NCBI GenBank assembly: GCA_964507275.1
Contig: CAZDPG010000001.1
Span: 86,503-150,502 of the forward strand
Length of the DNA: 64,000 bases
Direction of reading: 5' to 3'
DNA from: an uncultured Candidatus Saccharibacteria bacterium
GTDB taxonomy: Bacteria > Patescibacteriota > Minisyncoccia > Phycocordibacterales > Phycocordibacteraceae
Shown: in pieces, positions 1 through 60,311 of the stretch
Layout of the letters: each line of letters opens with the position of its first letter
Position numbering within the stretch: position 1 is the first letter of the stretch
The notes under the pieces: model-generated
Told to the model about the DNA's origin: nothing
What the model saw: the letters and a program-made list of their open reading frames with translations, nothing else
Database searches by the model: none
Position numbers and translations under genes: made by a program

Positions 1-621
1 GTCGGGGAGTGGCCGCTGCTGTTCCTGTTTTTCGCGTTGCGCTTTGCATCGTGGTTCAGTCTAGATTTTCTCATGCGTCGCCAGACCATCGCGAAAGAAG
101 AGTACTTGCTGTTCACCAGGGCGTGCTACCGAGAGTTAGGAGGATATGAAGCGTTTAAGAACGATTACCCTATGATATTAGCCTTGTTCAGGGCGGCATT
201 TAAGAAAGGGAAGCATGTCACCATCCTTGACGACGATACGAGGGAAATAACAGCGACGGCGTATGACGGATTCAAGGGAACCCTTAACGGAATCTCAGAG
301 AGAGTGAACTTTCGTCACGTCGGTGTTTTTTCTTTCTTAGGCATTTTTATCGCGATATCTTTCGCTATCGACGGTCTCTTCAAGATGGTGTCTGGTTTCC
401 TGACGGGAGATGGTCTCGCGCTCCTGACGGGGGTCGCGAGCTACCTTATTTTTGCAGGACTCTTCGGCGTGTACCTCGCCATGTCTCGTCAGCCAATCTT
501 CATCGCCGTGTTCGGTCCGCTGCTTGGTTTTAGTTTTCTGATGGCGAGTCTGTTTGCTGCCGTTCGGGCAATATTCGGCGTCTCCCTTCACTGGAAGGGT
601 CGCACGACGAAGGTCCAATAA
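1..621 (+). CDS. membrane protein, 5-prime partial (reading frame open from window edge)
   Basis: Frame 1 is open from nt 1 to TAA at 619-621. The track start at 37 is a TTG. The C-terminal half has about 4 predicted TM helices. No recognisable family. Confidence 0.4.
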   Translation, partial: VGEWPLLFLFFALRFASWFSLDFLMRRQTIAKEEYLLFTRACYRELGGYEAFKNDYPMILALFRAAFKKGKHVTILDDDTREITATAYDGFKGTLNGISERVNFRHVGVFSFLGIFIAISFAIDGLFKMVSGFLTGDGLALLTGVASYLIFAGLFGVYLAMSRQPIFIAVFGPLLGFSFLMASLFAAVRAIFGVSLHWKGRTTKVQ

Positions 622-625
622 CATT

Positions 626-1462
626 ATGATCGAAGACGCTACGTTTAAACATCTCGTATCGCTCAGCAGTCCGAGATTATGGTTTTTCTCAGCAGCAACA
701 TTTCTCCTAGGGGTCGCTATGGGGCTGATGGTCTTTGGGAGTTCATCAGCGGTGGTTCCCACCTGGCATTTCGTCCTGTTTATCTTTTGGGCGATTTCCG
801 TAGGCATGGTGGCCGCGCTTTCGTATGCCCGGGAATCTCCCTCCATCGTCTTTCCCTGGGAGCTTATCGGTAACCTGAAGCATCTTGCGACAGGCACGAG
901 CAGATTGGAGAGAAGCGCGACCATCTCGTCGTTCATAAGCGGTGCCTTCCTGGTGTTGCTTCTCCTGGTTAACCTCGTTTCCCTGGACGGCAAGATATTC
1001 GTGTTGAGTCTCTGTTTGCTCGCCGCAGACTTTATCTATGATTCCCCCTATATCAGGGAACCGTATCGGTCCCGTGTTGCCGCGATGTATGGCGCGGTGC
1101 TGATAATCCCACTGCTTGTTGGGTATGTGTTCAGTACGCATGCCTGGCCGAACCTGGATCTCGTGGCGGCAGGAGTATGCTATGGCATTGCCATGGGAAT
1201 ATATGCGAACGCAGTCAGGGGTGAGTACTTTCTGCCAAAAAACACATCGCTCTATGCCAGTGCTCTCGCAAGTGTTGTATGCGGGTATATTCTTTCTCGG
1301 TACGACGTGTTCTATTCGTTAACCGTGTCCTCACTTCTCGTTGTACTCATACTGAGCGCTCTGGCGAAGGACAGCTCTAAGATGCACAAGATACATGATG
1401 TAGCCTTCTACTTTCATTTTGTGATAGGAACCCTCGTAGGGTTTCATTTCTTCACCGCGTAA
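626..1462 (+). CDS. polytopic membrane protein (UbiA-like topology, no Asp-rich motifs seen)
   Basis: ATG at 626 lies 5 nt after the upstream stop. The product has about 8 hydrophobic helices. The N-terminal SSPRLWFF...LLG pattern is reminiscent of the prenyltransferase fold, but NDxxDxxxD motifs are not found. Confidence 0.4.
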   Translation: MIEDATFKHLVSLSSPRLWFFSAATFLLGVAMGLMVFGSSSAVVPTWHFVLFIFWAISVGMVAALSYARESPSIVFPWELIGNLKHLATGTSRLERSATISSFISGAFLVLLLLVNLVSLDGKIFVLSLCLLAADFIYDSPYIREPYRSRVAAMYGAVLIIPLLVGYVFSTHAWPNLDLVAAGVCYGIAMGIYANAVRGEYFLPKNTSLYASALASVVCGYILSRYDVFYSLTVSSLLVVLILSALAKDSSKMHKIHDVAFYFHFVIGTLVGFHFFTA

Positions 1463-1470
1463 TTCGGCGT

Positions 1471-3087
1471 TTAGACGAGAGTGAACAGTAACAAACCGAG
1501 ACATATCCCAATTAGCAACCAATCGCCCGTCATGTGGTAGAGCGTCGTTCGCGGATGGTTCTCGAAGGTAAAAGAGCTTGTGAGGACACCGTCCTGGCCT
1601 GAATACATCTGAGAGGTTATTGCTCCACGCTGGTTGATGATGGCCGACGGTCCGGATCGGTCGGCTCGGATGACCGGCAGGTTATTTTCCGCAGCCCTGA
1701 ATTGCGCGCTCGCAAGAGTGAATTGGTCGGTCATTTCGTTGGCGAACATGGCATTCGAACCGACCGATAGGAAGATATTCGCTCCCTGTGCGTTCTCTCG
1801 CACGAGCGTGCGTTCGGTGATTTCGGAACAAATGGCACTTCCAAGGCGCATGTTGTCGAGAAGAATCGGTGACTGTTGCTGTGTCGCTCCAGTGATGTCG
1901 CGTCGCGTGGTATAGAACCCTCTATCCTTGGCCCACTGCGGCGTGTAGTCCATGTAGGGGAATACGATCTCTTTGATGTAGGACGCGTGGAGGTATCCGT
2001 TCTGCCAGGCGTGCACGACGTCATGAAGTGTCTCGGCATCGTTTGTCGTATTCCAGGCAACGAACGTTGCGTGGGGTACGGTTTTCGCCACCCACGCAGT
2101 AACACTTGAGAGGGGAGCGGTATCACGGTCGAGCGACACGAGCGTCGAACTTGCACTCAATGTGAAGTCTGCGAGCGCGTAAGGATAGATAATGATATCA
2201 GGCGATGACCGTCTGGCGGACTCAATGAGATCCTCTAATTTCTGGTACTGGAACGTGCCGGCAGCATCAAATGAGCCGAAGGCTCCACCCCACCGGTCGG
2301 CATTCTGTATAAGGGCGACTGAAATTGTCGAGGTCGGTTGGTCATGATGGAGATAATTGTCATGGGCAAAGACGCCAGCACCGAAGAAGACGACCGCACC
2401 GAGAGTACACGCTGCGATAGGAACGCAGTTCAGCATCCGTGTCTTCAAGGGGAGACCTTCATGTTGGAAGAACGTATAGAAAGTAATCGCAATGACCGCG
2501 TTGATAGCAAGGATGACGAATGAAACGAAATGGATACCGCCAATTGCAGATAAACTGACAAAGGAAGATAGTGTGTGGACTGAGAAGGCGAGGATGGAGA
2601 AATCATATCCTCTAGAAAAGAATCCAGATACCATCGTTACGGATACTTCGATAAGCGTGGAGAATAGCGGGAGCGCGAAAGCCAGATACAGAGGTGTCAG
2701 CTCATGAGATTTCTTCAGAAAGGTGATTCCCCTGATAGCGAGGACACCAATACTGCCAGTTATGACTCCACAGAAAAGTGCTAGCGGTAAGGGAAGAAGG
2801 CGCGCCACTGCCTGGAAGAGATGCGCCTCAGGGGTCAACGTAAAGCCAGAGAGGTTCCAGTAGGCGGCAGAAAGAGTAGGAAGGAAACTCACGAGGAATA
2901 TGCCCCAAAATAATGTAGTATGCTGCCCGTGCGTGCGGTATACGAAATAGAAGAATGGCGCGAGTGCCACGAATGCAAACGGCCAGAGATTGAAAGGGTA
3001 AGTGGTAAGTAACAGTAAGAGTGCCGACAGAATCGGGAGGAGTAAATCAAAATTCTTCTTTACTGCAAAGGACAGTCTCGATGTCAT
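1471..3087 (-). CDS. lnt: apolipoprotein N-acyltransferase-like protein (Lnt paralog, distal)
   Basis: N-terminal multi-TM region carries the YPFNLWPFAFVALAP motif (compare E. coli Lnt FSPYDVWPAAI). C-terminal CN-hydrolase domain has AICSEI (catalytic Cys, compare Lnt AICYEI) and GSNAMFAN...AQFRAAENN (compare SNDAWFG...MARMRALE). Its start overlaps the upstream gene stop by 4 nt. Confidence 0.7.
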   Translation of the reverse strand: MTSRLSFAVKKNFDLLLPILSALLLLLTTYPFNLWPFAFVALAPFFYFVYRTHGQHTTLFWGIFLVSFLPTLSAAYWNLSGFTLTPEAHLFQAVARLLPLPLALFCGVITGSIGVLAIRGITFLKKSHELTPLYLAFALPLFSTLIEVSVTMVSGFFSRGYDFSILAFSVHTLSSFVSLSAIGGIHFVSFVILAINAVIAITFYTFFQHEGLPLKTRMLNCVPIAACTLGAVVFFGAGVFAHDNYLHHDQPTSTISVALIQNADRWGGAFGSFDAAGTFQYQKLEDLIESARRSSPDIIIYPYALADFTLSASSTLVSLDRDTAPLSSVTAWVAKTVPHATFVAWNTTNDAETLHDVVHAWQNGYLHASYIKEIVFPYMDYTPQWAKDRGFYTTRRDITGATQQQSPILLDNMRLGSAICSEITERTLVRENAQGANIFLSVGSNAMFANEMTDQFTLASAQFRAAENNLPVIRADRSGPSAIINQRGAITSQMYSGQDGVLTSSFTFENHPRTTLYHMTGDWLLIGICLGLLLFTLV

Positions 3088-4616
3088 AAGACCAAGAGAA
3101 GCAAAGAGATAATCCCGCCAAACACGAACAGGGCATCTCCGGTCAGGCTGTAAAGCGTCTTTCGCGGCTGCTCCTCATACGGGACGTTAGTGACAAACAC
3201 GCCATCTGCTTCATAGGATGTCTTTTGTATGATGCGTCCGTCGGAAGTGATGAATCCAGATGGTCCGAAGCGGTTTGCCCGCACGATGGCGGCATTGTTT
3301 TCAGCTGCCCTGAATTGCGCACTCGCGAGGTCGAACTCTGCGGCAAAACTGTCGCTGAACATTGCGTCAGAGCCTATCGAGAAGAGGATGTTCGCGTGTC
3401 GCGCATTGTTCCGGATAGTCTCTGCAGAGTTAATCTCTGAGCAAACAGCACTCGCGATTCGTGCATCAGAGAACTCGAAGGTCTGCTGCTGCGAATCCCC
3501 CGGGATTTCGTCGACAACGGTGCTGTAGAGACCGATACGCTGCGCCCATTGCGGGGTGTAATCCATGAACGGAAAGAGATTTGTCTTCTGATATGCGCTC
3601 ACGATGCTTCCGTGATGCCAGTACCCTATTTCATTAGAAAAGCCGTCGCTTTTCTCCACAGTGTTCCATGTCACGAGAGTGGTGCTCCCGAGTGTGGTGG
3701 CCGCCCAGGCGCTGAACTCGTCGAGAGGAGCAGTCGCGACAAACGGTGAGGATGACGTGGATGTGGTGAGTATCTCTTTTGATACAGAGAATGGATAGAT
3801 GATGATTGTGGGAACAGGATCTGAATCCCGCGCTTCGCGTATAAGTGATGCAAGTTTGCCGAACGAGAACTCATGTCCCTCGAATGTTCCGAACGCATTC
3901 TGTTGCCGGTCGTTGTTTTGCAGTACCGCGACAGCAACCGTCTGCTCGGTCTGTCCTTGCCTGAGGTACACCGTGTTGGCGAGAAAGAGGGCGATGATGA
4001 CTCCTATAGTGCCCGCCGTCAGGACGAGATAACGCTGTCGCGGGAACGCGACTTCTCCTCGTAAGATAAGTATTAAGAAAGCAACGAATACATTACAAAG
4101 GATCACGATCATCGAGACGGTATGAATACCGCCGAGTGCCGCGAGACTTACGAGGAACGGGATCGAGACAGTCGTATGAGCGAGTATACCGAGATTGTAT
4201 CCACCCGTACCGAACGTAATGAGCCATTCAACAAGTGCCCAGAGCAGGGCGAGTATGAAGATATTCTTCGCGCTCGAGGCCGTGCGCAGTTTCGTGGCAT
4301 AGAGCAGGATTGCTCCGCCAAAAAGCAAGCCTATGGCAAGCGCAATCGGAAGAGATGTCCACCGGATTATCGTCTGGAAGAAGTGCGCCTCGGGGAGCCA
4401 GGTGAAATTCATGACTGTGTCCGACATGAGCGCGAGTGGGAAGAGGAATCCTGTTGTGAAGCCGCTTAGAAATATCCTCGTGTATGCTACCGGATTCTTC
4501 TCCGTGAAATAAATGAGCGGTACGAGCGCGACGAACCCAAGCGGCCAGATATGAAAAGGGTAAAAGCTTACGATAAGAAGCAGCGTCGAGGACAACGGGA
4601 ATAAGAGCCACTTCAT
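3084..4616 (-). CDS. lnt: apolipoprotein N-acyltransferase-like protein (Lnt paralog, proximal)
   Basis: Same architecture as the distal paralog. Motifs are YPFHIWPLGFVALVP, AVCSEI and GSDAMFSD...AQFRAAENN. There are 4-nt ATGA overlaps at both ends (4613-4616 and 3084-3087). Confidence 0.7.
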   Translation of the reverse strand: MKWLLFPLSSTLLLIVSFYPFHIWPLGFVALVPLIYFTEKNPVAYTRIFLSGFTTGFLFPLALMSDTVMNFTWLPEAHFFQTIIRWTSLPIALAIGLLFGGAILLYATKLRTASSAKNIFILALLWALVEWLITFGTGGYNLGILAHTTVSIPFLVSLAALGGIHTVSMIVILCNVFVAFLILILRGEVAFPRQRYLVLTAGTIGVIIALFLANTVYLRQGQTEQTVAVAVLQNNDRQQNAFGTFEGHEFSFGKLASLIREARDSDPVPTIIIYPFSVSKEILTTSTSSSPFVATAPLDEFSAWAATTLGSTTLVTWNTVEKSDGFSNEIGYWHHGSIVSAYQKTNLFPFMDYTPQWAQRIGLYSTVVDEIPGDSQQQTFEFSDARIASAVCSEINSAETIRNNARHANILFSIGSDAMFSDSFAAEFDLASAQFRAAENNAAIVRANRFGPSGFITSDGRIIQKTSYEADGVFVTNVPYEEQPRKTLYSLTGDALFVFGGIISLLLLVL

Positions 4617-5869
4617 GAGAGGTGATTTATGAATCTCTTTAGTTTCGTCGTCTTCGACGAAAGTGCTTCAACGAACTCAACAGTCGGTTCGACAAAAAGC
4701 TTCTTCTCGATAGCGTCGGCAATCGTGACATTCGTACCGACACGAAGTTTCTTGAGAGTGGCTATAATCTGCGGTTGTATGTGGCTCCGAAACGCGTCGG
4801 TGGCAGCGAACCTTGTTTTCTCGATCTCGATGACGATACGGGCAGCTGCTCCATCGGTGGGATGGAAATGAAGCTGATACTGAGTGCCGATGAGAGGAGT
4901 GAGGGGCAGAAAGGCCCTTTCCACGTCTTCGAGAAGGATCTCGATGCCGTTGATACGCAGGCGATCAACATCCTCGCGTCCATACCATGCAAGAGTCGGT
5001 CCGGGGAGGCCGCAGGGACAGGGCGGCAACTCGCTGAAATAGTCACCCGTACGGTAGCGGATGAGTGGGAAGACGGTGTTCTTAAAAGAGGTGATGACGA
5101 GCTCGTTATCGATAAGTTCAGTGACGGCTATGTCGTCATGGATGGTGTGGAAGTAGGACTTCTTCTCGGCGAGCATTTTTTGGCATGGGAAGAAAATGTG
5201 TCGCCCAATCTCTGATGAGCCATACGTATTTGCGAGTGTTGCGTTCGGATAAAGAGAAGCGAGCTCCTCGCGTCGCGCTTCAGTGAGTGTCTCTGAACAG
5301 AGGACAATGAGTCTGATGGCTTCGGTCGAGTAGTGCTCTTTCAGGTGCGGAGCGAGAAGTACTGCGATGGTCGGTGTGGCGTAGAGCGCATCCGGCTCAG
5401 TCTCTTTGGCGATGAGGGCGCTATTAGCAAGATTCTGATAGTCAGCCGAGATGGGGAACACCGGACGCGGCGATTCCTGACACATCTGCACGAACATAGG
5501 ACCGAAGTTCTTGTTGAAGGGAGGATAGGTTACCAGAATCCTGTGTACATCCATACCGAGCGTCGGATCGTACTTGTAGGCATCCAACAGTTTATGGAAC
5601 GAAATGACGGGTTTTGAGCCCGTGGTGCCTGAGGTATAGGCGATAAAGCCAATCTCTCCTTCCGGGGCGTAGAGCCTCGCAAGCGGAGGCGTTTCCTCAA
5701 GCTCTTTGCGGGTGAGAAAGGGGAGCGAGGAGAATTTCTCGGGGTCGAGGATATCCTTTTCGGAGAAACCGGCCGCCACATATTTCTCACGGTAGAAGTT
5801 ACTGAGGGGACTGTGCCATATACGGGACAGTTCTTTCTGGAGAGGTATCTCAGGGTTGGGGAAATACAT
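4613..5869 (-). CDS. adenylate-forming enzyme, PaaK / CapK / coenzyme F390 synthetase-like (ANL superfamily)
   Basis: AMP-binding P-loop YTSGTTGSKP, then YGSSEIG and IRYRTGD motifs. The 418-aa length matches the phenylacetate-CoA ligase-like subfamily. Confidence 0.65.
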   Translation of the reverse strand: MYFPNPEIPLQKELSRIWHSPLSNFYREKYVAAGFSEKDILDPEKFSSLPFLTRKELEETPPLARLYAPEGEIGFIAYTSGTTGSKPVISFHKLLDAYKYDPTLGMDVHRILVTYPPFNKNFGPMFVQMCQESPRPVFPISADYQNLANSALIAKETEPDALYATPTIAVLLAPHLKEHYSTEAIRLIVLCSETLTEARREELASLYPNATLANTYGSSEIGRHIFFPCQKMLAEKKSYFHTIHDDIAVTELIDNELVITSFKNTVFPLIRYRTGDYFSELPPCPCGLPGPTLAWYGREDVDRLRINGIEILLEDVERAFLPLTPLIGTQYQLHFHPTDGAAARIVIEIEKTRFAATDAFRSHIQPQIIATLKKLRVGTNVTIADAIEKKLFVEPTVEFVEALSSKTTKLKRFINHLS

Positions 5870-5941
5870 GATTCTGACGGATGCCGGTCATTATAACGCA
5901 TGACCTTCCAAGAATTATGGACGTATGGTAGGATGGCCGGA

Positions 5942-6193
5942 ATGAAAGCAGATATACATCCGAACGATTATCGCCAGGTCATATTCGAGGATATGGCTTC
6001 CGGCGCGCGTTTCCTCATCGGTTCGACGGTTCACACGACCGAGACCGCTCTCTGGGACGATAAGAAAGAGTACCCGAAGCTCACGGTAGAAATTTCTTCG
6101 CAGTCGCACCCATTCTATACCGGCGAAGAGCGCACGCTCGATAAGGCAGGTCGTGTGGAGAAGTTCAAACAGCGCGCCGCAGCAAAAAAGTAA
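5942..6193 (+). CDS. rpmE: 50S ribosomal protein L31, type B (no Cys motifs)
   Basis: MKADIHPNDY...HPFYTG. Start taken at the internal ATG giving the canonical MKxDIHP N-terminus. Confidence 0.8.
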   Translation: MKADIHPNDYRQVIFEDMASGARFLIGSTVHTTETALWDDKKEYPKLTVEISSQSHPFYTGEERTLDKAGRVEKFKQRAAAKK

Positions 6194-6196
6194 GAG

Positions 6197-6232
6197 CAGA
6201 AAAATCGGACACCAAGTGTCCGATTTTTCTGC
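6197..6232. terminator. intrinsic terminator hairpin after rpmE
   Basis: GAAAAATCGGACAC-CAAGT-GTCCGATTTTTC is a perfect 14-bp stem flanked by A-runs and T-runs. Confidence 0.6.
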
Positions 6233-6244
6233 TATCCTGCCCCT

Positions 6245-8036: not shown

Positions 8037-8621
8037 ATGGAAATTACGACTGAAATCATCAAGGAATTGCGAGATAAGACTGGCGTTTCTATTATGCAGT
8101 GCAAGAAGGCTCTCGAGGAGGCGGCCGGCGATCTGGCGCAGGCAGAAGTAATACTCAGAAGGCACTCGGCTGCTTCTGCCGAGAAGAAAGCAGACCGCGA
8201 GCTTGCCGCAGGCGCTATCGGGAGCTACGTCCATGACGGTGCGGTCGGCGCTATGGTGCTCCTCTCCTGCGAGACTGACTTCGTCGCTAAGAACCCGGAG
8301 TTCATCGCGCTTGCTCGCGAGCTCGCGATGCAGGTCGCTGCAACGAATCCTTCGTATGCGACGGTCGATGATGTGCCGCAGGATGCGAAGGATGCCGCAA
8401 CCGCCGTCTTCGAGAAGGAAGTCGTTGGCAAGCCTGCCGATATGCAGGCAAAGATACTCGAAGGCAAGCTCTCGAGTTACTTCTCCGATCAAGTTCTGCT
8501 TGAGCAGGCGTTCATCAAGGACGAGAGCAAGACGATACATGGTCTCCTGAACGAGGCGACGCAAAAGTTCGGAGAGCGCGTCCTCATAAGCCGCTTCGCG
8601 CGCCTCTCCACGCGCTCGTAA
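8037..8621 (+). CDS. tsf: elongation factor Ts (short, 195 aa)
   Basis: N-terminal UBA-like ITTEIIKELRDKTGVSIMQCKKALEEA and core CETDFVAKNPEF. Start set at the internal ATG giving MEITTE. Gene order rpsB-tsf is conserved. Confidence 0.85.
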   Translation: MEITTEIIKELRDKTGVSIMQCKKALEEAAGDLAQAEVILRRHSAASAEKKADRELAAGAIGSYVHDGAVGAMVLLSCETDFVAKNPEFIALARELAMQVAATNPSYATVDDVPQDAKDAATAVFEKEVVGKPADMQAKILEGKLSSYFSDQVLLEQAFIKDESKTIHGLLNEATQKFGERVLISRFARLSTRS

Positions 8622-8627
8622 CTCTCC

Positions 8628-9041
8628 GTGGCGAACCTCATCTCGCTATCGATCGCGCTCGCACTCCTCGCCGGATTCATCGCACTTACGCGTTATGAGG
8701 CGAAACGGGGAGTCCGTTTCTTCGCGGCCAAGCGAACATGGCTCGATGAGGGAATCGAACGTATCGAGTTCATCGTGGAGCATGTCGACCTCATAGCGTT
8801 CGCTCGGGACGAAGTGCGCCACGCGATGACCCGTCTCGGGCATGCAATCGCACATCTCTCGCTGCAGGCGGTGCGCTCGGCGGAACGTCTGCTTACCCGC
8901 CTCGTGCGCTATCTGCGCGTGCAGCATGAGGACGAGGTCGCACCGCGCGAGACCGCCCGAGAATTCGTGAAGACCCTTTCCGAATTCAAGGATGGCCTGA
9001 ACGCGACGCATCCCGATATTGATTCGCTTGAGGTAAAATAG
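8628..9041 (+). CDS. hypothetical membrane-anchored coiled-coil protein
   Basis: N-terminal TM (LISLSIALALLAGFIAL) followed by a charged helical region. No family recognised. Confidence 0.4.
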   Translation: MANLISLSIALALLAGFIALTRYEAKRGVRFFAAKRTWLDEGIERIEFIVEHVDLIAFARDEVRHAMTRLGHAIAHLSLQAVRSAERLLTRLVRYLRVQHEDEVAPRETAREFVKTLSEFKDGLNATHPDIDSLEVK

Positions 9042-9127: not shown

Positions 9128-9796
9128 TTATCTTGTTCTTGAAGTCGTTGTCGCAAGCGCCCCCTTGGGGAATTGTTTCTCGAGGTCATCGAGCGAGGTA
9201 AATCCATACGATTGCTTGCCGTTTATGACGAACGCGGGAAGCTTGTTCTGCACCTTCATGACCGCTTCGAGTGTCTTCAGGGCACCGAGGTCGAGGTTGT
9301 AGTCGAAGGAGTAGACACGGAGTGATGGATACGTGGTGCGCAGGTATGAAAGCGCATAGCCAGCCTTGTCGCAATCGGCGCAGTCACCAGCATTGCTATA
9401 GAAATAGAGGACCGTCACCGGCTTCGTGCCGCAGGCTGCCGCGAGCTGCTTGGTGAGGAGATAGTCACGGATCTCAAGAAGGGAATAGCGTTCCTTCAGT
9501 CGCACGACCTGAGGGTTATCGATGCCGAGCTGGTCCTCGGCTGTTGCGAGCCGGCTACCGAGATCGGACAGCTCGCTTGCGAGCATCGTTGACGATGCTG
9601 CACTATCGCACGGTGTCGCAGCGAGGAGTGAGAGCTGTGTATCGAGCGAGAGAGTATCGATCGAGAGCTGGTCTTCTATTGCACCGAGCTCAGCGATACG
9701 GGCGCGATTAAGGTATCCGACAGCATACGCCACCGTGCCAGCGAGCACGATTGTGATGAAAAGCGATATAAGGACATTTCGAGTTACGAGAGACAT
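9128..9796 (-). CDS. membrane-anchored thioredoxin-fold protein with CxxC (CADC) motif
   Basis: N-terminal TM, a coiled region, then VLYFYSNAGDCADCDK...PAFVINGKQ, which is typical of thioredoxin/DsbA-like folds. Lies 10 nt downstream of the GT2 gene on the same strand. Confidence 0.45.
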   Translation of the reverse strand: MSLVTRNVLISLFITIVLAGTVAYAVGYLNRARIAELGAIEDQLSIDTLSLDTQLSLLAATPCDSAASSTMLASELSDLGSRLATAEDQLGIDNPQVVRLKERYSLLEIRDYLLTKQLAAACGTKPVTVLYFYSNAGDCADCDKAGYALSYLRTTYPSLRVYSFDYNLDLGALKTLEAVMKVQNKLPAFVINGKQSYGFTSLDDLEKQFPKGALATTTSRTR

Positions 9797-9806
9797 GTAT
9801 AGATAG

Positions 9807-11045
9807 TTATTCGCGCCATCCGCGTTCCTTACTGAGAGTCACGTCAGCGGTAGCACGCATGAGCCAGAGCGGTGCGACAAATCCATAGAGGAAGGTGTAG
9901 GAGATGAGACCGAGTACGATTTTCCCCGGAGTCTTGGAGATATATTTCCCGATAACGACGAAGGAGAGCGATATGAGCAATGTCGCGATGCTGAGGATAA
10001 GCAGGAAATCTACTGGCACGTAGAACCAGTCGAACGTACCGTGCGGGAGGAGCGCGTAGGAGAGCGGGATGCCCGCACGAACCTCAATGGCCGTAACGAG
10101 ACTCTGCGAAAGTTGGAAGAGCATAAGGAAGAAGACGAAGATGCCGCTGCCGATGGTGAGGACAGCGGTTGGAAGCACAAGCATGCCGAGGACGCCGTGT
10201 TTGGGTGAGCCGACGAGGTCGCGGTATTCACCGAGAACGTTACGGATGAATCCTGCGGTCCAGCGTGTGCGCTGCTTCACGAGCTTGGTGAGGGTATTCG
10301 GCGACTTGGTATAGACGCGCGCTCTCGGTGCGTTCTCTATCTCGTAGCCCGCACGCTGGATGCGGAGCGCCATTTCCATGTCTTCGGTCTGGTGCGCGTG
10401 ACGGAATGCGCCGAGTTCGTCGAGGATGCTGCGGCGGTAGAAAGAGAACGGTCCGGGAGTGACGTAGAGGCCGTTGATCGAGGCGAAGACGTGCCGGTAG
10501 GTGATACCGAAGGCATATTCGGCCGCCTGCATGTGCTGAAGCAGACTCTTGGGTTCATGTACCGACATGGCCGCAGTCACCGCCGCGACCTTCTCACGCT
10601 CAAAGCACGGAATGATCTCTTTGAGGGCATCCGGCTCGACGAAGGAATCGGCATCGAGGCAGCCGATGAACTCAGCCCCGGTGGAGGCGATACCGGCGTT
10701 CAGCGCGGTGTGCTTCCCGCCGTTCTCCTTGCGAATGATGCTCACGAGCGGATGGTCGGCGAAACGTGCCATAGCGAGAGGGGTAGCATCGGTCGATCCG
10801 TCGTCGACGAGGATTATCTCGAGCTTGTCTGAAGGGTAGTCAAGCGCAAGGAGCGATTCGCAGGTCGCGGCTATGGTCGTGGCTTCGTTCCAGCAGGGCA
10901 CGATGATAGCGACCGATGGTGCAGCTTCGCCCGGCCGTCTCGCCCGGCCGTCTCGCGCTGGCTTCGAGAGGAGTGTCACGAGGACGAACGACTCGAAGAA
11001 TATGGCGAGGAATATGAAAGGATACGTCAGCACCTCTGGGCTCAT
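9807..11045 (-). CDS. family-2 glycosyltransferase, processive synthase type (PgaC/IcaA/NodC/CesA-like)
   Basis: IIVPCWNE, DDGSTD, CLDAD, TED and QRTRW (QxxRW) motifs. TM helices at both the N and C termini. Confidence 0.75.
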   Translation of the reverse strand: MSPEVLTYPFIFLAIFFESFVLVTLLSKPARDGRARRPGEAAPSVAIIVPCWNEATTIAATCESLLALDYPSDKLEIILVDDGSTDATPLAMARFADHPLVSIIRKENGGKHTALNAGIASTGAEFIGCLDADSFVEPDALKEIIPCFEREKVAAVTAAMSVHEPKSLLQHMQAAEYAFGITYRHVFASINGLYVTPGPFSFYRRSILDELGAFRHAHQTEDMEMALRIQRAGYEIENAPRARVYTKSPNTLTKLVKQRTRWTAGFIRNVLGEYRDLVGSPKHGVLGMLVLPTAVLTIGSGIFVFFLMLFQLSQSLVTAIEVRAGIPLSYALLPHGTFDWFYVPVDFLLILSIATLLISLSFVVIGKYISKTPGKIVLGLISYTFLYGFVAPLWLMRATADVTLSKERGWRE

Positions 11046-55823: not shown

Positions 55824-56192
55824 TTAGTAGCCACCGCGGCCGTAGCCGCCCTGTGCGCCACCACCGAAGCCGCCGCGATCACCGCCGCCGAAACCGCCTT
55901 CGCGGCGAGGAGGACGATCACCCTGTGGGCGAGCGAAAGAAACGGAGAGCGTGCGCCCGTCCATCTCCTTGCCATCCCAACGGTCGATAGCTGCCTGAGC
56001 TTCCGCCTCGGTAGCCATCTCGACGAAGCCGAAGCCGCGTGAGCGGCCCGTCATACGGTCGCTAATGATGCTGGCAGAAGCGACATTACCGGCCTCGCTA
56101 AAGGCCTTCTTGAGATCGTCTTCTGTCGAGCGATAGGGAATGCCGCCTACGTAGAGCTTGTTTCCCTGAACTGATGCCTGCTGATTATCCAT
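55824..56192 (-). CDS. RRM-type glycine-rich RNA-binding protein
   Basis: RNP2 LYVGGI, RNP1 RGFGFVEM and a C-terminal GGFGGG/RGG-type tail. Confidence 0.85.
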   Translation of the reverse strand: MDNQQASVQGNKLYVGGIPYRSTEDDLKKAFSEAGNVASASIISDRMTGRSRGFGFVEMATEAEAQAAIDRWDGKEMDGRTLSVSFARPQGDRPPRREGGFGGGDRGGFGGGAQGGYGRGGY

Positions 56193-56462
56193 GTGTAGAT
56201 CTAAACCGGTTAATCTCGCCGAAACTGAACACGTGCCGTCTTTTTATGAGAGCGGAGCGAAGCTCGAATACTCTGCGAGTAAAAAACAGTATGCCAGAAA
56301 TCTGTAAAAGGCGCAAGGTAGCTGGGGATAACCGGTAAAGAGTCTTGATTATTTTATAAAAAGATGTATTCTTCAAAAGTCGTATGCCACCTGCCGAGTG
56401 CAGAGAGCCATCGACAAAGGGGAAGTTCTTTCAGAAACGAAAAAGAGAAGGACGTGAGCGCC

Positions 56463-56774
56463 ATGGCAAACATAGATGCAGATGAAGCACCTGATGTGAA
56501 CGAACGTGTCGGCTTTGCGCCGATTCATGACAAGGTTTCCACCGAGGAAGTCGTGGGTATCGAAGTCGCGAGCGATGAAGCTGGCGACGATGACGAACAC
56601 CACCAGCCTTCCTATGGCGGGTTTCCGGAAATCCTGAGAACCAATCTGTTCAACGGCCCGATGATCCGCAGTCGCGACGATGCGCGGTATGACATGCTCA
56701 TGTCGGCTTCGACGGCGCGGGGTGCTCAGGTCGTGCGGGGCGGTCTTCGCGCCTCTGGGCGAATACGTTTCTGA
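56463..56774 (+). CDS. acidic hypothetical protein (about 103 aa)
   Basis: Start set at MANIDADEAP. Asp/Glu-rich product. Has its own terminator. Weak RBS. Confidence 0.35.
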   Translation: MANIDADEAPDVNERVGFAPIHDKVSTEEVVGIEVASDEAGDDDEHHQPSYGGFPEILRTNLFNGPMIRSRDDARYDMLMSASTARGAQVVRGGLRASGRIRF

Positions 56775-56795
56775 CCTTTTTCGCAGCGCAAAAGG

Positions 56796-56836
56796 GCGTC
56801 CGGTTCACCGGGCGCTTTTTTATTTCCCGCCGCCCT
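56796..56836 (+). terminator. intrinsic terminator
   Basis: GGGCGTCCGG-TTCA-CCGGGCGCTT imperfect stem, followed by TTTTTTATTT. Confidence 0.5.
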
Positions 56837-56945
56837 GGCGTACTACTGCGCAGAGGTGTTGACAAGAGGGGTGGACAGGTAGACGATTGTACTATCCACT
56901 GGCGGGGGCCAGCGAGATTATTAGCTCGCGATAATTCCAAAACCC

Positions 56946-59900
56946 ATGAACAACGCCTTTCGTGTGTCTGTTCCCGTCCTCTCTCTGATTTTTGCGTTCG
57001 GAGTTTCTGCTCCAGTTGCGTTTGCTTCGACCTTCTTTGTCGACGCGACGGCCGTAGGTGCAAATGATGGCTCATCTCCATCAGATGCTTTTACAACCAT
57101 TCCTGCAGCCGTCGCTGCTGCGCAGACCGCTGGCGATATTATTAGTATTGCGGATGGAACGTACACGCTCTCCAGCACTTTGGACGTCACACAAGGCGTC
57201 ACGATTGAAGGGGCAAGTGAGAGCGGTACTATTATTGACGCGAGTTCCGTCAATGGTTATGGCATTGCTCCTCATAATGCAGAAGGAGTTGTTCTTCAAA
57301 ACTTCACACTCGCTGGCCCCACAGCGAACTCAAGCGGCAAGTATGGCATTAAGGCGTACGATCTCACCAGCTTCACCATCCGTAATGTAACCGTGCATGG
57401 GTCTGGAAGATCAGAAATTGATCTTAATCGTGTTACAGGCGCTAGTTTAATTGAGAACGTTACTGCCAATGGAGAAGACACTGCAGGTGTCGGCGTCGCT
57501 CTTAGTAATTCGAGTGGGGTGACGCTTCGCAATATAACCACTCTCGGGAACACATGGGGAAGCGTTGGTCTCTATGACACGACTTCTGGCCCTACTACCA
57601 ATATCGTATTCGAGGGTACTAATTCTTTCGGGGAGACAGACTACGTCATTTATATTGATGCCGAGTATGGTTTCGGAGTCTCAAATATCACCCTTCCTCC
57701 GGGTTTTGGCTGGGCGGTGCGCAATACGGTCTTTCGTGCTGGTCGGAGTGATGACTTCACTCTCTTCCAATCTTCAAAGGATGCCGCTGTTGCCACTGCG
57801 CTTTCTCTCCAAACCTCACCATATTCGGTGAACACTGCGTCCTATGTTCAGACAGTCGCGCCGGATGGCTCCCTCGAGAATAGCTTCGTCGTGGGAGAAG
57901 GTATGAGTGTTCAAACTGCGGTCACAGCCGCAGCTCCCGGAGGTACGATTAATGTCGCTGCGGGGACATATATTGAACAGGTAACGATAGTTAAGGACCT
58001 AACAGTAACCGGTGTCGGTGACACGACGATTATTCAATCGCCCAATACCCTTACTACAACGTTCTCGGACTCGAGTAGCAATACAATGAAGCCGATTATA
58101 ACTGTGAGTGGGGCCACAGTAGCCCTCTCGCGGCTTAAAGTAGACGGGCTCGGCAAAGGCAATTCGAACAATCGTTTTGTCGGTATTGGTTTCTTCAATG
58201 CTGGCGGCTCTGTTAACAACACGACAGTGACCGGTGTGCGCAACACACCACTCGATGGTGTTCAACATGGTGTCGGTGTTTATGCGTATAACGCGGACGC
58301 GAATGTTCGTACGCTTACCGTCTCAACAAGTAATGTTAACGATTATCAGAAGAACGCAATGGTGTTCACGGGTGCAGGATTGACTGTTAACGTTAACGGA
58401 AATACCACAACTGGTGCTGGCGCACAAACGATGACTGCACAGAACGGCATCCAATTGGGTACCGGAGTAACAGGCACAGTACAAAATAATATTGTAAGTG
58501 GTAATCTATGCAGTCATTCAAGTTGCGGTAGTGATTGGTACACAAAGACGCAATCTGTAGGGATTATGCTCTACAATGCCGCAGGTCCGGTAACAATTTC
58601 TGGCAACCAAATATCGACCTCCGATATGGGAATCTACGACCAGCACACGATTGGGACTGTTACCATTCAGGATAACGTTCTAGTAAACAATCGTTACTTC
58701 GGTGTCTTGCTTGCAGCAGGAGATGTCTATATCAACAGGGGCTCGATTTCGGGTAGTAACATCGGCGTCATGAATCCTTCGGATCGTACCGCTTCAGTTT
58801 CTGATCCGATGGTGAGAAATATGAACTTGGGTGACAGTACCATTGGTGTCCAGAATGACGCTTCGTATGTTGTTGATGCCGTTAACAACTGGTGGGGGAC
58901 AGCGAGTTCGATGGAAATTTCTGCAAAGATTTTTGGTTCTGGGACCGTTACCTTTGATCCGTGGTACACCAGTGCGGCTATGACAACGCTCTCGGATGGC
59001 GCTGCGACCAATGCGACGTATACCTCTACGACTGCAGGCGAGGTTGATATGCCAACAGGAGCGACCGATGTCGTCCTCACCGACACGACAGTGATGAATC
59101 TTTCTGCTGGATTGGTGAGTGACTCAGTCACTTTGCAATCAGGAGTAGATACGCAGCCAGTCGTCCTGACGAATTCAAGCCTCGCTGGCGTTAGCGCGAG
59201 CATCCCTGACGGGACGACAATCACTGGGCCAAGCGGCTGGGACGGCATATTAACACCTCCGGTCTCCGTCACGTCAAGCGGCAATGCTCCAGCAGGATTC
59301 AGTGTCGAAGGTACTGTTGTTAACATCGGGAGTTCTCTCGGTACGCTCTTGTTCGGTAGTCCCGTAACGGTATTCCTACCGAACGTCACAGGGACGGTTG
59401 GATACAAGGCCGCCGGCTCAAGTTCCTGGAACACAATCGCTGCCTGCGCGGGTAATTATGATAATCCCACGAGCCCAACATCCCCAGGTGAATGCTCAGT
59501 AACCAACGGCACACACACGAAGATTCTCACGTACCACTTCACGACATTCGGTGGTCTTAATCCGGCAACCCCGGTCATCACACCGAACGGTGTTGTCTTC
59601 AGCGGTTCGGTTGATGTGGAGATGAATGTTGTGGCGGGCACAGATATTCACTACACGATAGGCGGCGCGACGCCGACCTGCAGCTCCACGCCCTATTCGA
59701 GCACACTCACATTCCACAGCCCGACAGTGCTGAAGGCAGTGCGCTGCGACGGAACAAAGGTCTCGGAAGTAGCGACGGCGACGTTTGTCCTCGTGTCGAA
59801 CTCAGGCGGTGGCGGTGGCGGCAGCAGTGTCGTTGTAGCTACACCAGCAACACCTGCGACACCGGCAACGCCGACTGTGACACCAGCTACGCCTGCAACC

Positions 59901-60311
59901 CCAGCCACACCGGCAACTCCAGCGCGAGGCCGGGTGCTCGGTGCAGCGACGTTCAACTTCGCCAAGAACCTCATGCTCGGATCACGCGGGGCGGATGTCA
60001 CCGCGCTCCAGCAGTACTTGATTGATTCCGGCTATGCGCTACCAGCTGGCGCAACGGGTTACTTTGGTGCCCAGACGAAAGCAGCGGTCATAGCGTTCCA
60101 GAAGGCACGCGGTATCGCCCAGGTTGGCTCAGTCGGTCCGCTCACGCGTGCCGAGCTCAACAAGGGTGTCATCGCTACGACTCCTGAGACATCAGCTCCG
60201 TCTTCTTCTAGTCTTACGGTCTCGCAAGTGAACTCAGTCATCTCGCTCCTCACCGCATTCGGCGTGGACCAGACGACTATCGACAGTGTGCGCGCGACGC
60301 TCACGAAGTAA
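56946..60311 (+). CDS. large secreted right-handed beta-helix protein with TPA-repeat linker and C-terminal peptidoglycan-binding domain
   Basis: Signal peptide MNNAFRVSVPVLSLIFAFGVSAPVAFA. Many about 22-aa PbH1-like repeats (NxTxxG...). A fn3/Chb-hex-C-like module is present. Poly-Gly then (TPA)n at about 59820-59925. PG_binding_1-like C-terminus (LQQYLIDSGYALPAGATGYFGAQTKAAVIAFQKARGI). Confidence 0.7.
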   Translation: MNNAFRVSVPVLSLIFAFGVSAPVAFASTFFVDATAVGANDGSSPSDAFTTIPAAVAAAQTAGDIISIADGTYTLSSTLDVTQGVTIEGASESGTIIDASSVNGYGIAPHNAEGVVLQNFTLAGPTANSSGKYGIKAYDLTSFTIRNVTVHGSGRSEIDLNRVTGASLIENVTANGEDTAGVGVALSNSSGVTLRNITTLGNTWGSVGLYDTTSGPTTNIVFEGTNSFGETDYVIYIDAEYGFGVSNITLPPGFGWAVRNTVFRAGRSDDFTLFQSSKDAAVATALSLQTSPYSVNTASYVQTVAPDGSLENSFVVGEGMSVQTAVTAAAPGGTINVAAGTYIEQVTIVKDLTVTGVGDTTIIQSPNTLTTTFSDSSSNTMKPIITVSGATVALSRLKVDGLGKGNSNNRFVGIGFFNAGGSVNNTTVTGVRNTPLDGVQHGVGVYAYNADANVRTLTVSTSNVNDYQKNAMVFTGAGLTVNVNGNTTTGAGAQTMTAQNGIQLGTGVTGTVQNNIVSGNLCSHSSCGSDWYTKTQSVGIMLYNAAGPVTISGNQISTSDMGIYDQHTIGTVTIQDNVLVNNRYFGVLLAAGDVYINRGSISGSNIGVMNPSDRTASVSDPMVRNMNLGDSTIGVQNDASYVVDAVNNWWGTASSMEISAKIFGSGTVTFDPWYTSAAMTTLSDGAATNATYTSTTAGEVDMPTGATDVVLTDTTVMNLSAGLVSDSVTLQSGVDTQPVVLTNSSLAGVSASIPDGTTITGPSGWDGILTPPVSVTSSGNAPAGFSVEGTVVNIGSSLGTLLFGSPVTVFLPNVTGTVGYKAAGSSSWNTIAACAGNYDNPTSPTSPGECSVTNGTHTKILTYHFTTFGGLNPATPVITPNGVVFSGSVDVEMNVVAGTDIHYTIGGATPTCSSTPYSSTLTFHSPTVLKAVRCDGTKVSEVATATFVLVSNSGGGGGGSSVVVATPATPATPATPTVTPATPATPATPATPARGRVLGAATFNFAKNLMLGSRGADVTALQQYLIDSGYALPAGATGYFGAQTKAAVIAFQKARGIAQVGSVGPLTRAELNKGVIATTPETSAPSSSSLTVSQVNSVISLLTAFGVDQTTIDSVRATLTK

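Follow-up and report, generated by a model that had tools for sequence, protein, structure and literature searches.

We report an operon in which a gene for an ATP-dependent adenylating enzyme is joined to two genes for proteins that retain the scaffold of apolipoprotein N-acyltransferase (Lnt) with an altered active site. The operon lies in a 64-kb stretch of contig CAZDPG010000001.1 from an uncultured, ultra-small groundwater Candidatus Saccharibacteria bacterium of the Patescibacteria; we call this stretch the window and use its positions as coordinates. All three genes are on the minus strand. They encode ANL, a 418-amino-acid soluble PaaK-type adenylate-forming enzyme (4613-5869; assigned by Pfam, NCBIfam, a match in the PDB and an AlphaFold2 (AF2) model), LntA, a 510-amino-acid membrane protein of the Lnt fold with eight transmembrane (TM) segments and an outward CN-hydrolase domain (3084-4616), and LntB, a 538-amino-acid paralog of LntA (1471-3087; Pfam, BLASTP and a neighbor-joining (NJ) tree). 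Our tentative reading, to which we give somewhat less than an even chance, is that the operon specifies a Patescibacteria-specific, two-sided module of envelope acyl transfer, in which ANL would activate a small acid and the rewired Lnt-like enzymes would transfer it outside.

The genes are joined by ATGA overlaps at 4613-4616, where the TGA stop of ANL meets the ATG of LntA (minus strand; junction ...ctcATGAag...), and at 3084-3087, between the LntA stop and the LntB start (minus strand; junction ...cttATGAca...). An original prediction, made from the letters of the window, had described three minus-strand genes of these sizes joined in this way, and a direct reading of the coordinates and junctions bore it out. 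It had also taken the overlaps as a signature of linked expression. The overlaps stand, but alone they have little evidential value, and it is the recurrence of the adjacency in about 19 loci that carries the claim. Four-nucleotide overlaps are frequent in operons and are uninformative taken alone. The ATGA overlaps occur in the window and in L117 (L006, L087, L117 and so on are labels of metagenome loci of relatives), other loci have overlaps or gaps of -14 to +2 nt, and L118 has gaps of 6 and 10 nt. A terminator scan revealed no convincing terminator between ANL, LntA and LntB. The stop/start overlaps are kept among orthologous operons, and the genes are thus predicted to form a translationally coupled operon.

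Active site of the Lnt-like proteins

Both paralogs and their relatives were aligned to E. coli Lnt, whose residue numbering is used throughout. In the E. coli enzyme, Glu267 is the general base of both half-reactions and is positioned by Asn314 (PMC5500890), Glu343 has been termed the "fourth catalytic residue", and Trp237, Tyr388 and Glu389 are essential (PMC5500890, PMC3850990). The original prediction had assumed an intact Glu-Lys-Cys triad, and the alignment contradicts this for both paralogs. Glu267, which stands in WPESA in E. coli, is replaced by Phe in LntA (YPFS; Phe276, codon 3789-3791) and by Tyr in LntB (YPYA; Tyr303, codon 2179-2181), leaving the triad Glu267-Lys335-Cys387 incomplete, with Lys and Cys present and Glu gone. 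Kept are Lys335 (LntA Lys344, 3585-3587; LntB Lys372, 1972-1974), Cys387 (Cys392, 3441-3443; Cys420, 1828-1830), Glu389 (Glu394, 3435-3437; Glu422, 1822-1824) and Phe416. The other changes seen in the alignment of the two paralogs are Trp237 to Phe, Glu343 to Asp (LntA Asp352, 3561-3563; LntB Asp380, 1948-1950), Tyr388 to Ser and Gly342 to Met. Four of the seven residues listed as essential in E. coli Lnt are changed (PMC3850990).

The same pattern was found well beyond the window. We surveyed the clade with a profile search of 1.84 billion representative proteins, clustered at 50% identity, and delimited it at more than 255 bits. The top ~78 clusters read F-P-[F>>Y,L,...]-S / K / D / C-S-E, and below the score drop all read P-E / K / E / C-x-E. 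Cys387, Lys335 and Asp343 are invariant in the 78 clusters, Glu389 is present in 77/78, Phe416 and Tyr333 are nearly invariant, and position 267 is other than Glu in 75/78 representatives. The clade occurs solely in Patescibacteria. Judging by these alignments, the Glu-less Lnt-like proteins are a distinct monophyletic clade derived from Lnt, not the product of decay in a single genome. The conservation of the catalytic residues at less than 50% identity, together with a carboxylate gained at position 314 or 315, argues for rewired enzymes rather than dead ones.

The states at positions 314 and 315 were taken from an anchored L-INS-i sub-alignment, the hmmalign mapping being displaced by an insertion specific to E. 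coli. Position 315 (Thr315 in E. coli, beside Asn314) is Glu in 50/77 clade clusters and Gln in 10/77, whereas it is acidic in 0/63 canonical relatives, where Ser, Ala or Thr stands instead. Position 314 is Asp in 20/77 clusters. At least one carboxylate among 267, 314 and 315 was found in 66/77 clusters, and where 267 is aromatic, 314/315 supplies one in 50/56 clusters. Thr-Gln or Thr-Gly stands at 314/315 in the few members whose residue 267 is Asp or Glu. At positions 267-314-315, LntA reads Phe-Asn-Glu (Asn328-Glu329, 3630-3635) and LntB reads Tyr-Asp-Val (Asp356-Val357, 2017-2022). Because the carboxylates at 267 and at 314/315 are complementary, these data suggest that the carboxylate base migrated to the neighboring strand.

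The assignment of both paralogs to the Lnt fold, also part of the original prediction, held: both carry LNT_N (PF20154) and CN_hydrolase (PF00795) in Pfam, and the blocks AVCSEI/AICSEI, GSDAMF/GSNAMF and AQFRAAENN were all found. LntA and LntB share 37% identity (E 8e-98, BLASTP). With the NCBIfam Lnt model TIGR00546 (cut-off 132.9), LntA scores 139.6, narrowly above the cut-off, and LntB 99.3, below it. The AF2 model of LntA (predicted local distance difference test score, pLDDT, 92.1) has the helix and strand layout of an LNT_N membrane domain, a CN_hydrolase domain and a C-terminal TM helix, and in a Foldseek search run with LntA alone the top 24 PDB matches were all Lnt, over the full length (E ~1e-22, TM-score 0.69-0.73). 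Topology was derived from the AF2 helix boundaries and from counts of Lys and Arg over 30 family members. Loops 1-2, 3-4 and 5-6 are poor in these residues (0.1, 0.0 and 0.7 per loop), and loops 2-3, 4-5 and 6-7 and the C-terminal tail are rich in them. This positive-inside pattern suggests that the nitrilase domain faces outward, as in Lnt.

ANL and its linkage to the Lnt-like genes

ANL had been described as a PaaK-type adenylating enzyme, and our data agree. It carries the P-loop YTSGTTGSKP (5609-5638), YGSSE (5210-5224), RYRTGD (5042-5059), GREDVD (4964-4981) and a C-terminal Lys block (4631-4654), and scores 36.3 bits with Pfam AMP-binding (PF00501) against a cut-off of 29.9. The PaaK-like structure 4r1l was matched in the PDB with an E of 5e-14. 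The core motifs (P-loop, YGxxE, YRTGD, GRxD and the C-terminal Lys) align with those of 4r1l and are invariant in the alignment of the ANL family; by its motifs, ANL is predicted to be competent for adenylation. Its best NCBIfam matches are of the PaaK type but lie far under the equivalog cut-offs (TIGR02155, 61.6 against 646; NF041878, 66 against 700), and its scores mark it as a member of a separate, uncurated subfamily, not a PaaK equivalog. The family has at least 275 clusters, all from Patescibacteria.

The AF2 model of ANL (pLDDT 91.5) and Foldseek indicate a short two-domain PaaK-type fold. The best matches were BT_0428 and PaaK1 (TM-score 0.75), followed by ClxA, AjiA1, NatL2 and HCL. 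PaaK, BT_0428, ClxA, AjiA1 and NatL2, the nearest structures, are aryl-acid ligases, some of which form esters or amides without coenzyme A (CoA), and no long-chain fatty-acyl ligase was found among the top sequence or fold matches. In sequence and in modeled fold ANL thus resembles ligases of aryl or short acids, not fatty-acid ligases. The earlier view of ANL as a PaaK-type adenylating enzyme stands, with the qualification that its relatives by sequence and fold activate aryl or short acids and not long-chain fatty acids. A TM segment and a signal peptide were searched for in ANL and none was found, and the protein is predicted to be cytoplasmic.

We scanned metagenomes with the Lnt-like motif PF[MIL]DYTPx[WF] as the anchor and obtained 27 loci, in which open reading frames (ORFs) were scored with hidden Markov models built from our own alignments. 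The ANL motif PL[IV]RY[RK]TGD was also tried as a synteny anchor, in species-representative genomes, and was rejected as generic to PaaK-like enzymes (2/80 loci were true relatives). Sixteen dereplicated Lnt-like genes had at least 1.25 kb of upstream sequence. ANL lies immediately 5' of the Lnt-like gene on the same strand in 13 of them and immediately 3' in one, and two have no ANL neighbor. In 12 of the 13 the two genes are separated by -14 to +2 nt, and the apparent 188-nt overlap in L093 comes from an early call of the ORF start. When the search was turned round and ANL genes on long contigs served as the anchor, a Lnt-like neighbor was present in 2/2 cases, one pair being co-directional and overlapping and the other divergent with a 54-bp spacer. 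Within the subclade that has an aromatic residue at 267, ANL is adjacent in 19/19 loci with enough flanking sequence, reversed and divergent arrangements included. The adjacency repeats in about 19 dereplicated loci of 35-87% identity, in several contexts and orientations, and the pair survives changes of context (L118, L119), order (L006) and orientation (L121) at 35-45% protein identity.

The three-gene order, which the original prediction proposed to look for in relatives, was recovered in part: ANL with one Lnt-like gene is kept, but the tandem of two paralogs is not. The full trio ANL-LntA-LntB is limited to the lineage of the window, namely L117 (70% identity, same context) and L118 (60%, different context), and L119 (59% identity) has ANL-LntA only. 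In the NJ tree LntA and LntB are sister clades within the ANL-linked group. Given this branching and the restriction of the trio to one lineage, the tandem pair is best explained as a lineage-specific duplication, with ANL plus one Lnt-like gene as the conserved unit.

The state of the active site follows the presence of ANL. Among all genes with known context, an aromatic residue occupies position 267 in 22/22 ANL-adjacent genes and in 0/6 ANL-less ones (0/7 counting P0190), so that aromatic 267 and an adjacent ANL go together to a striking degree in the sequences compared. In the ANL-less subclade the residue at 267 varies among D, E, Q, L and H. Acidity at this position was considered as the explanation of the missing ANL and fitted the first three cases, but was rejected because the ANL-less group also has Q, L and H. 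The ANL-less loci L112-L116 (e.g. L114:5346-9446) share a conserved block of rpsF-ssb-rpsR-efp on the minus strand, the Lnt-like gene (LntL), two small uncharacterized minus-strand genes and a sigma-70 factor of the extracytoplasmic function type. The 3' end of LntL is overlapped in these loci by an opposite-strand gene for a protein of 236-264 amino acids.

Genomic setting and neighboring genes

A perfect TATAAT hexamer (5890-5895, minus strand), 20 nt 5' of the ANL ATG, is a candidate -10 box of the operon. Direct reading places it in the short intergenic stretch between ANL and the divergent rpmE; it was not called by a two-hexamer consensus scan, and a good -35 is absent. The operon is flanked by housekeeping genes of a reduced genome (rpmE, prfA, rpsB, tsf and pheST). 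Groundwater metagenomes contain identical operons, on contigs that reach 600-673 kb, and the named relatives are all Patescibacteria (Paceibacterota, Liptonbacteria and Kaiserbacteria). The G+C content is ~0.52 in window positions 1-6000 and 56000-60000 and 0.55-0.60 elsewhere (operon 0.521, whole window 0.566). The low values could reflect the composition of membrane proteins or a different origin.

Between rpmE and prfA, at 6195-6233, there is a very strong hairpin with an 18-bp stem, a 3-nt loop and T-runs on both sides, which looks like a bidirectional intrinsic terminator. In L117 a gene for a 117-amino-acid 23S-rRNA-IVP / bAvd-like protein (L117:7018-7371, minus strand) lies between the same two genes; it is not in the window. 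On the other side of the operon, positions 37-1462 (plus strand) hold the end of an opposite-strand cluster that is convergent with LntB, the stops at 1462 and 1471 being 8 nt apart. It comprises the C-terminus of a family 2 glycosyltransferase (GT2), which leaves the left edge of the window, and a multi-TM protein of 278-302 amino acids with a weak UbiA-like match; on full contigs the gene order is UbiA (288 amino acids), GT2 (401 amino acids) and multi-TM protein. We considered this cluster as a functional partner, by analogy with Ppm1/Ppm2, and rejected it. Since it is common only to the closest relatives, L117 included, and absent from L118 and L119, it probably represents mere local synteny. 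Beside pheST, at 9128-11045 (minus strand), a chitin-synthase-like GT2 (412 amino acids) is followed by a 222-amino-acid single-TM protein without a family match; this envelope-related pair is kept in L002 and L119.

In the relatives, other gene families recur near the pair. An aromatic amino-acid ammonia-lyase with the 4-methylideneimidazole-5-one (MIO; Ala-Ser-Gly) cofactor is encoded in eight loci (L006:5952-7502, L093:11479-13056, L095:2671-4359, L097:8122-9744 and four more), and in L006, L093 and L095 it is in the same operon as the pair. Its best family match is the flexirubin tyrosine ammonia-lyase (TAL) FlxA and its best PDB match the R. sphaeroides enzyme (RsTAL). The selectivity switch NL[VI]RSH has Ser-His, as in histidine ammonia-lyase (HAL), and the second block, NQD[VI]VS (NQDVVS), is TAL-like. 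With this hybrid signature the product may be p-coumarate, urocanate or another acid. Polytopic membrane methyltransferases of the ICMT/PEMT type occur in at least 12 loci (L087:11594-12286, L120:9735-10370 and L118:4564-5172, all minus strand; L121:4806-5414 and 8302-8901; and others), and outside the lineage of the window they are nearly always beside the ANL-LntL pair. A caffeoyl-CoA-type O-methyltransferase is present in three loci.

A family of small lipoproteins (~165-185 amino acids) without a database match was also found, with clear lipoboxes LAGC, ASGC and LSAC (L087:8129-8632, L092:1265-1759, L106:3691-4245, L107:3850-4401 and L108:3521-4057). The lipoprotein gene is directly 5' of ANL, with a 4-nt overlap with the ANL start in L087 and a 17-nt gap in L092. 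It is possible that this family is the dedicated substrate of the module.

Proposed mechanism, alternatives and known systems

We propose that ANL converts a small carboxylic acid, probably an aromatic or alpha,beta-unsaturated one, to an acyl-AMP in the cytoplasm and loads the acyl group on a membrane-embedded carrier or lipid in the inner leaflet, possibly while bound to loops that the Lnt-like protein exposes to the cytoplasm. Once the acyl group had been translocated, the outward Cys would take it and pass it to an amine, which may be that of a lipoprotein N-terminal Cys or of a lipid head group. The Lnt-like proteins would still be Cys-thioester acyltransferases, with a relocated base and a remodeled acyl pocket, and LntA and LntB, as recent tandem duplicates, may serve different acceptors or form a heteromer. 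The original prediction had the acyl-AMP donated directly to the Lnt-like site, a step that does not fit a CN-hydrolase domain predicted to be extracytoplasmic and an ANL without signal peptide or TM segment. With the Cys outside and ANL in the cytoplasm, direct delivery is unlikely, and a membrane-bound intermediate or a division of labor would be needed.

In a more specific form, which we regard as unlikely as it stands, the system would carry out an ATP-driven modification of the envelope. A non-fatty acid activated by the ligase, for example an aryl-acrylic acid made by the lyase, would be put on lipoprotein N-termini or lipid head groups by the Lnt-like enzyme; or the system would be a lipid re-acylation machinery of lipid auxotrophs. 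The aromatic residue at 267 would line the acyl pocket, and the ICMT/PEMT-type methyltransferase would modify the product afterwards.

Several observations weigh against the proposed module. The ATP chemistry takes place in the cytoplasm and the Cys lies outside the cell, and the operon has no gene for a carrier protein, a flippase or a CoA- or acyl carrier protein (ACP)-related function. No ANL gene adjoins the Lnt-like gene in a basal subclade of the Glu-less family, which means either that the fold can work without ANL or that ANL is encoded elsewhere. The correlation (22/22 against 0/7) is phylogenetically non-independent, because the ANL-less genes are one clade in an unbootstrapped NJ tree, and it involves few independent events. 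Eleven of 77 clade members have no carboxylate at 267, 314 or 315. The 64 kb of the window contain no lyase, ICMT or O-methyltransferase gene, so that the hints about the substrate come from relatives only, and no lipobox ORF was found there in strict and loose scans, a result that is uninformative at such a size.

The proteins may instead perform canonical Lnt chemistry and N-acylate lipoproteins, with phospholipid donors and a relocated base, while ANL, on the cytoplasmic side, re-activates the freed or scavenged acid for re-acylation of the lysolipid by-product or of lysolipids from the host, in the manner of LplT/Aas. We consider this on balance improbable, although several points favor it. 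Each enzyme would act on its own side of the membrane, and the topology problem would thus be gone. E. coli already ties Lnt, which produces lysophosphatidylethanolamine (lyso-PE), to an enzyme with an ANL domain at the cytoplasmic face, on the opposite membrane side: Aas re-acylates lyso-PE flipped by LplT (PMC11416262). Patescibacteria are unable to make lipids, are enriched in lysolipids and have no known machinery for uptake or remodeling (PMC11665869, PMC7242380). Lipobox lipoproteins adjoin the pair in relatives, and LntA scores above the NCBIfam Lnt cut-off. However, Aas is a fusion of a PlsC acyltransferase with an acyl-ACP synthetase that works with a flippase of the major facilitator superfamily (MFS), and its ANL domain is of another subfamily, whereas the ANL studied here is PaaK-type, with no long-chain fatty-acyl ligase in its top matches. 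No MFS flippase and no PlsC-type acyltransferase or acyl-ACP-synthetase domain was found in the operon or in the neighborhoods examined. Salvage would also leave unexplained the strict co-occurrence of aromatic 267 with ANL and the clustering with an aromatic amino-acid lyase and methyltransferases, and it sits poorly with the change at four of the seven positions that E. coli Lnt requires (PMC3850990).

Another explanation, in our view improbable to a clear degree, is that the Lnt-like proteins are membrane anchors or scaffolds, as pseudo-enzymes or with a minor role, and that ANL itself ligates the acid to a lipid or protein at the inner leaflet. Both paralogs have lost the canonical general base, the ANL-less subclade shows free drift at position 267, and the tight predicted translational coupling suggests a stoichiometric complex. 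Some ligases of the PaaK family (ClxA, AjiA1 and NatL2) make esters or amides straight from the acyl-AMP. The soluble synthase Ppm1 of corynebacteria and M. smegmatis has the Lnt homologue Ppm2 as its partner. Triad-variant Lnt paralogs without detectable N-acylation exist, such as BCG_2279c (C387S) and the subsidiary Lnt2 of Streptomyces (PMC3850990). Yet the near-invariance of Cys387, Lys335, Glu389, Phe416 and Tyr333 across the ~78 clusters points to strong purifying selection on an extracellular catalytic site, and the compensatory carboxylates at 314/315 speak for retained catalysis. Finally, the adjacency might have no functional meaning and reflect synteny inherited in compact genomes by unrelated pathways. 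Candidate Phyla Radiation (CPR) genomes are compact, short overlaps are frequent between unrelated neighbors, and fam3, fam5, sigma-70 and recA nearby look like inherited synteny shared with the ANL-less subclade. But the pair outlasts the changes of context, order and orientation noted above, and the active-site state tracks the presence of ANL, and we hold this last explanation to be very improbable indeed.

The proposed module shares parts with several known systems. Canonical Lnt of E. coli and P. aeruginosa, a member of the nitrilase superfamily (TIGR00546; PDB 5N6H, 5N6M, 5XHQ), moves the sn-1 acyl chain of a phospholipid onto the N-terminal Cys of apolipoproteins, in genomes that also carry Lgt and LspA. 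It has the same architecture of an LNT_N domain with eight TM segments and an outward CN-hydrolase domain, and the Cys nucleophile, the oxyanion Lys, Glu389, Phe416, Tyr333 and Pro266 are kept in the Lnt-like clade. The clade differs in Glu267 to Phe/Tyr, Trp237 to Phe, Glu343 to Asp, Tyr388 to Ser, Gly342 to Met/Leu/Ser, Trp415 to Met/Ile and the new Glu/Asp at 315/314, and in the coupling of the Lnt-like gene to an adenylating enzyme that depends on ATP, a partner not required by canonical Lnt. The statement in the original prediction that Lnt is normally single-copy has to be qualified, as exceptions are known in Actinobacteria. The second Lnts of that phylum (Streptomyces Lnt2; M. bovis BCG_2279c / M. 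tuberculosis Rv2262c-2261c) are likewise extra paralogs in monoderm-type bacteria, some with a substituted triad and apparently with a non-canonical role (PMC3850990). They differ in that Cys387 is changed to Ser rather than Glu267 being changed, they are not in tandem, and no adenylating partner has been described.

On the side of the ligase, ANL has the short fold of ~420 amino acids and all core motifs of the PaaK family (PaaK1/2, BT_0428, the CoA-independent ClxA, AjiA1 and NatL2). In the relatives it clusters with an MIO ammonia-lyase, as ligase and tyrosine ammonia-lyase do in flexirubin (FlxA/FlxY) and bagremycin (BagA/BagE) synthesis. ANL has only 18-22% identity to the PaaK family, and its partner is a membrane Lnt-like protein, not polyketide synthase, fatty acid synthase or catabolic genes. 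The last step of lipoprotein acylation has been reinvented repeatedly, also in the form of a two-component system: LnsA/LnsB in Staphylococcus, Lit in Enterococcus/Bacillus and Lnb in Bacteroides (PMC11573676, PMC8275575). Those enzymes are unrelated in fold to Lnt and none has an ATP-dependent activating enzyme, whereas here a modified Lnt scaffold is used.

The view that this architecture had not been described before was upheld: our literature search on Lnt together with Patescibacteria, Saccharibacteria or adenylate-forming enzymes gave nothing relevant, and no paper was found that links Lnt with these bacteria or with an adenylating enzyme. The combination of a Lnt scaffold, its active site rewired, with ANL as an obligate partner is thus undescribed so far, and the family is annotated only generically. 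Because LntA passes TIGR00546 despite the absent catalytic Glu, pipelines will label such genes "apolipoprotein N-acyltransferase".

A large part of bacterial diversity belongs to the Patescibacteria (CPR). These bacteria are unable to synthesize lipids of their own, and according to a 2024 perspective the mechanisms of lipid uptake and remodeling are unidentified (PMC11665869). The module is a concrete candidate for the tailoring of envelope lipids or lipoproteins in these lipid-auxotrophic bacteria. The Glu-less clade is also a natural experiment in the migration of a catalytic residue within the nitrilase superfamily. If the more specific form of our reading is true, an ATP-driven ligase combined with a Lnt-like system would be a new class of bacterial lipoprotein or lipid modification.

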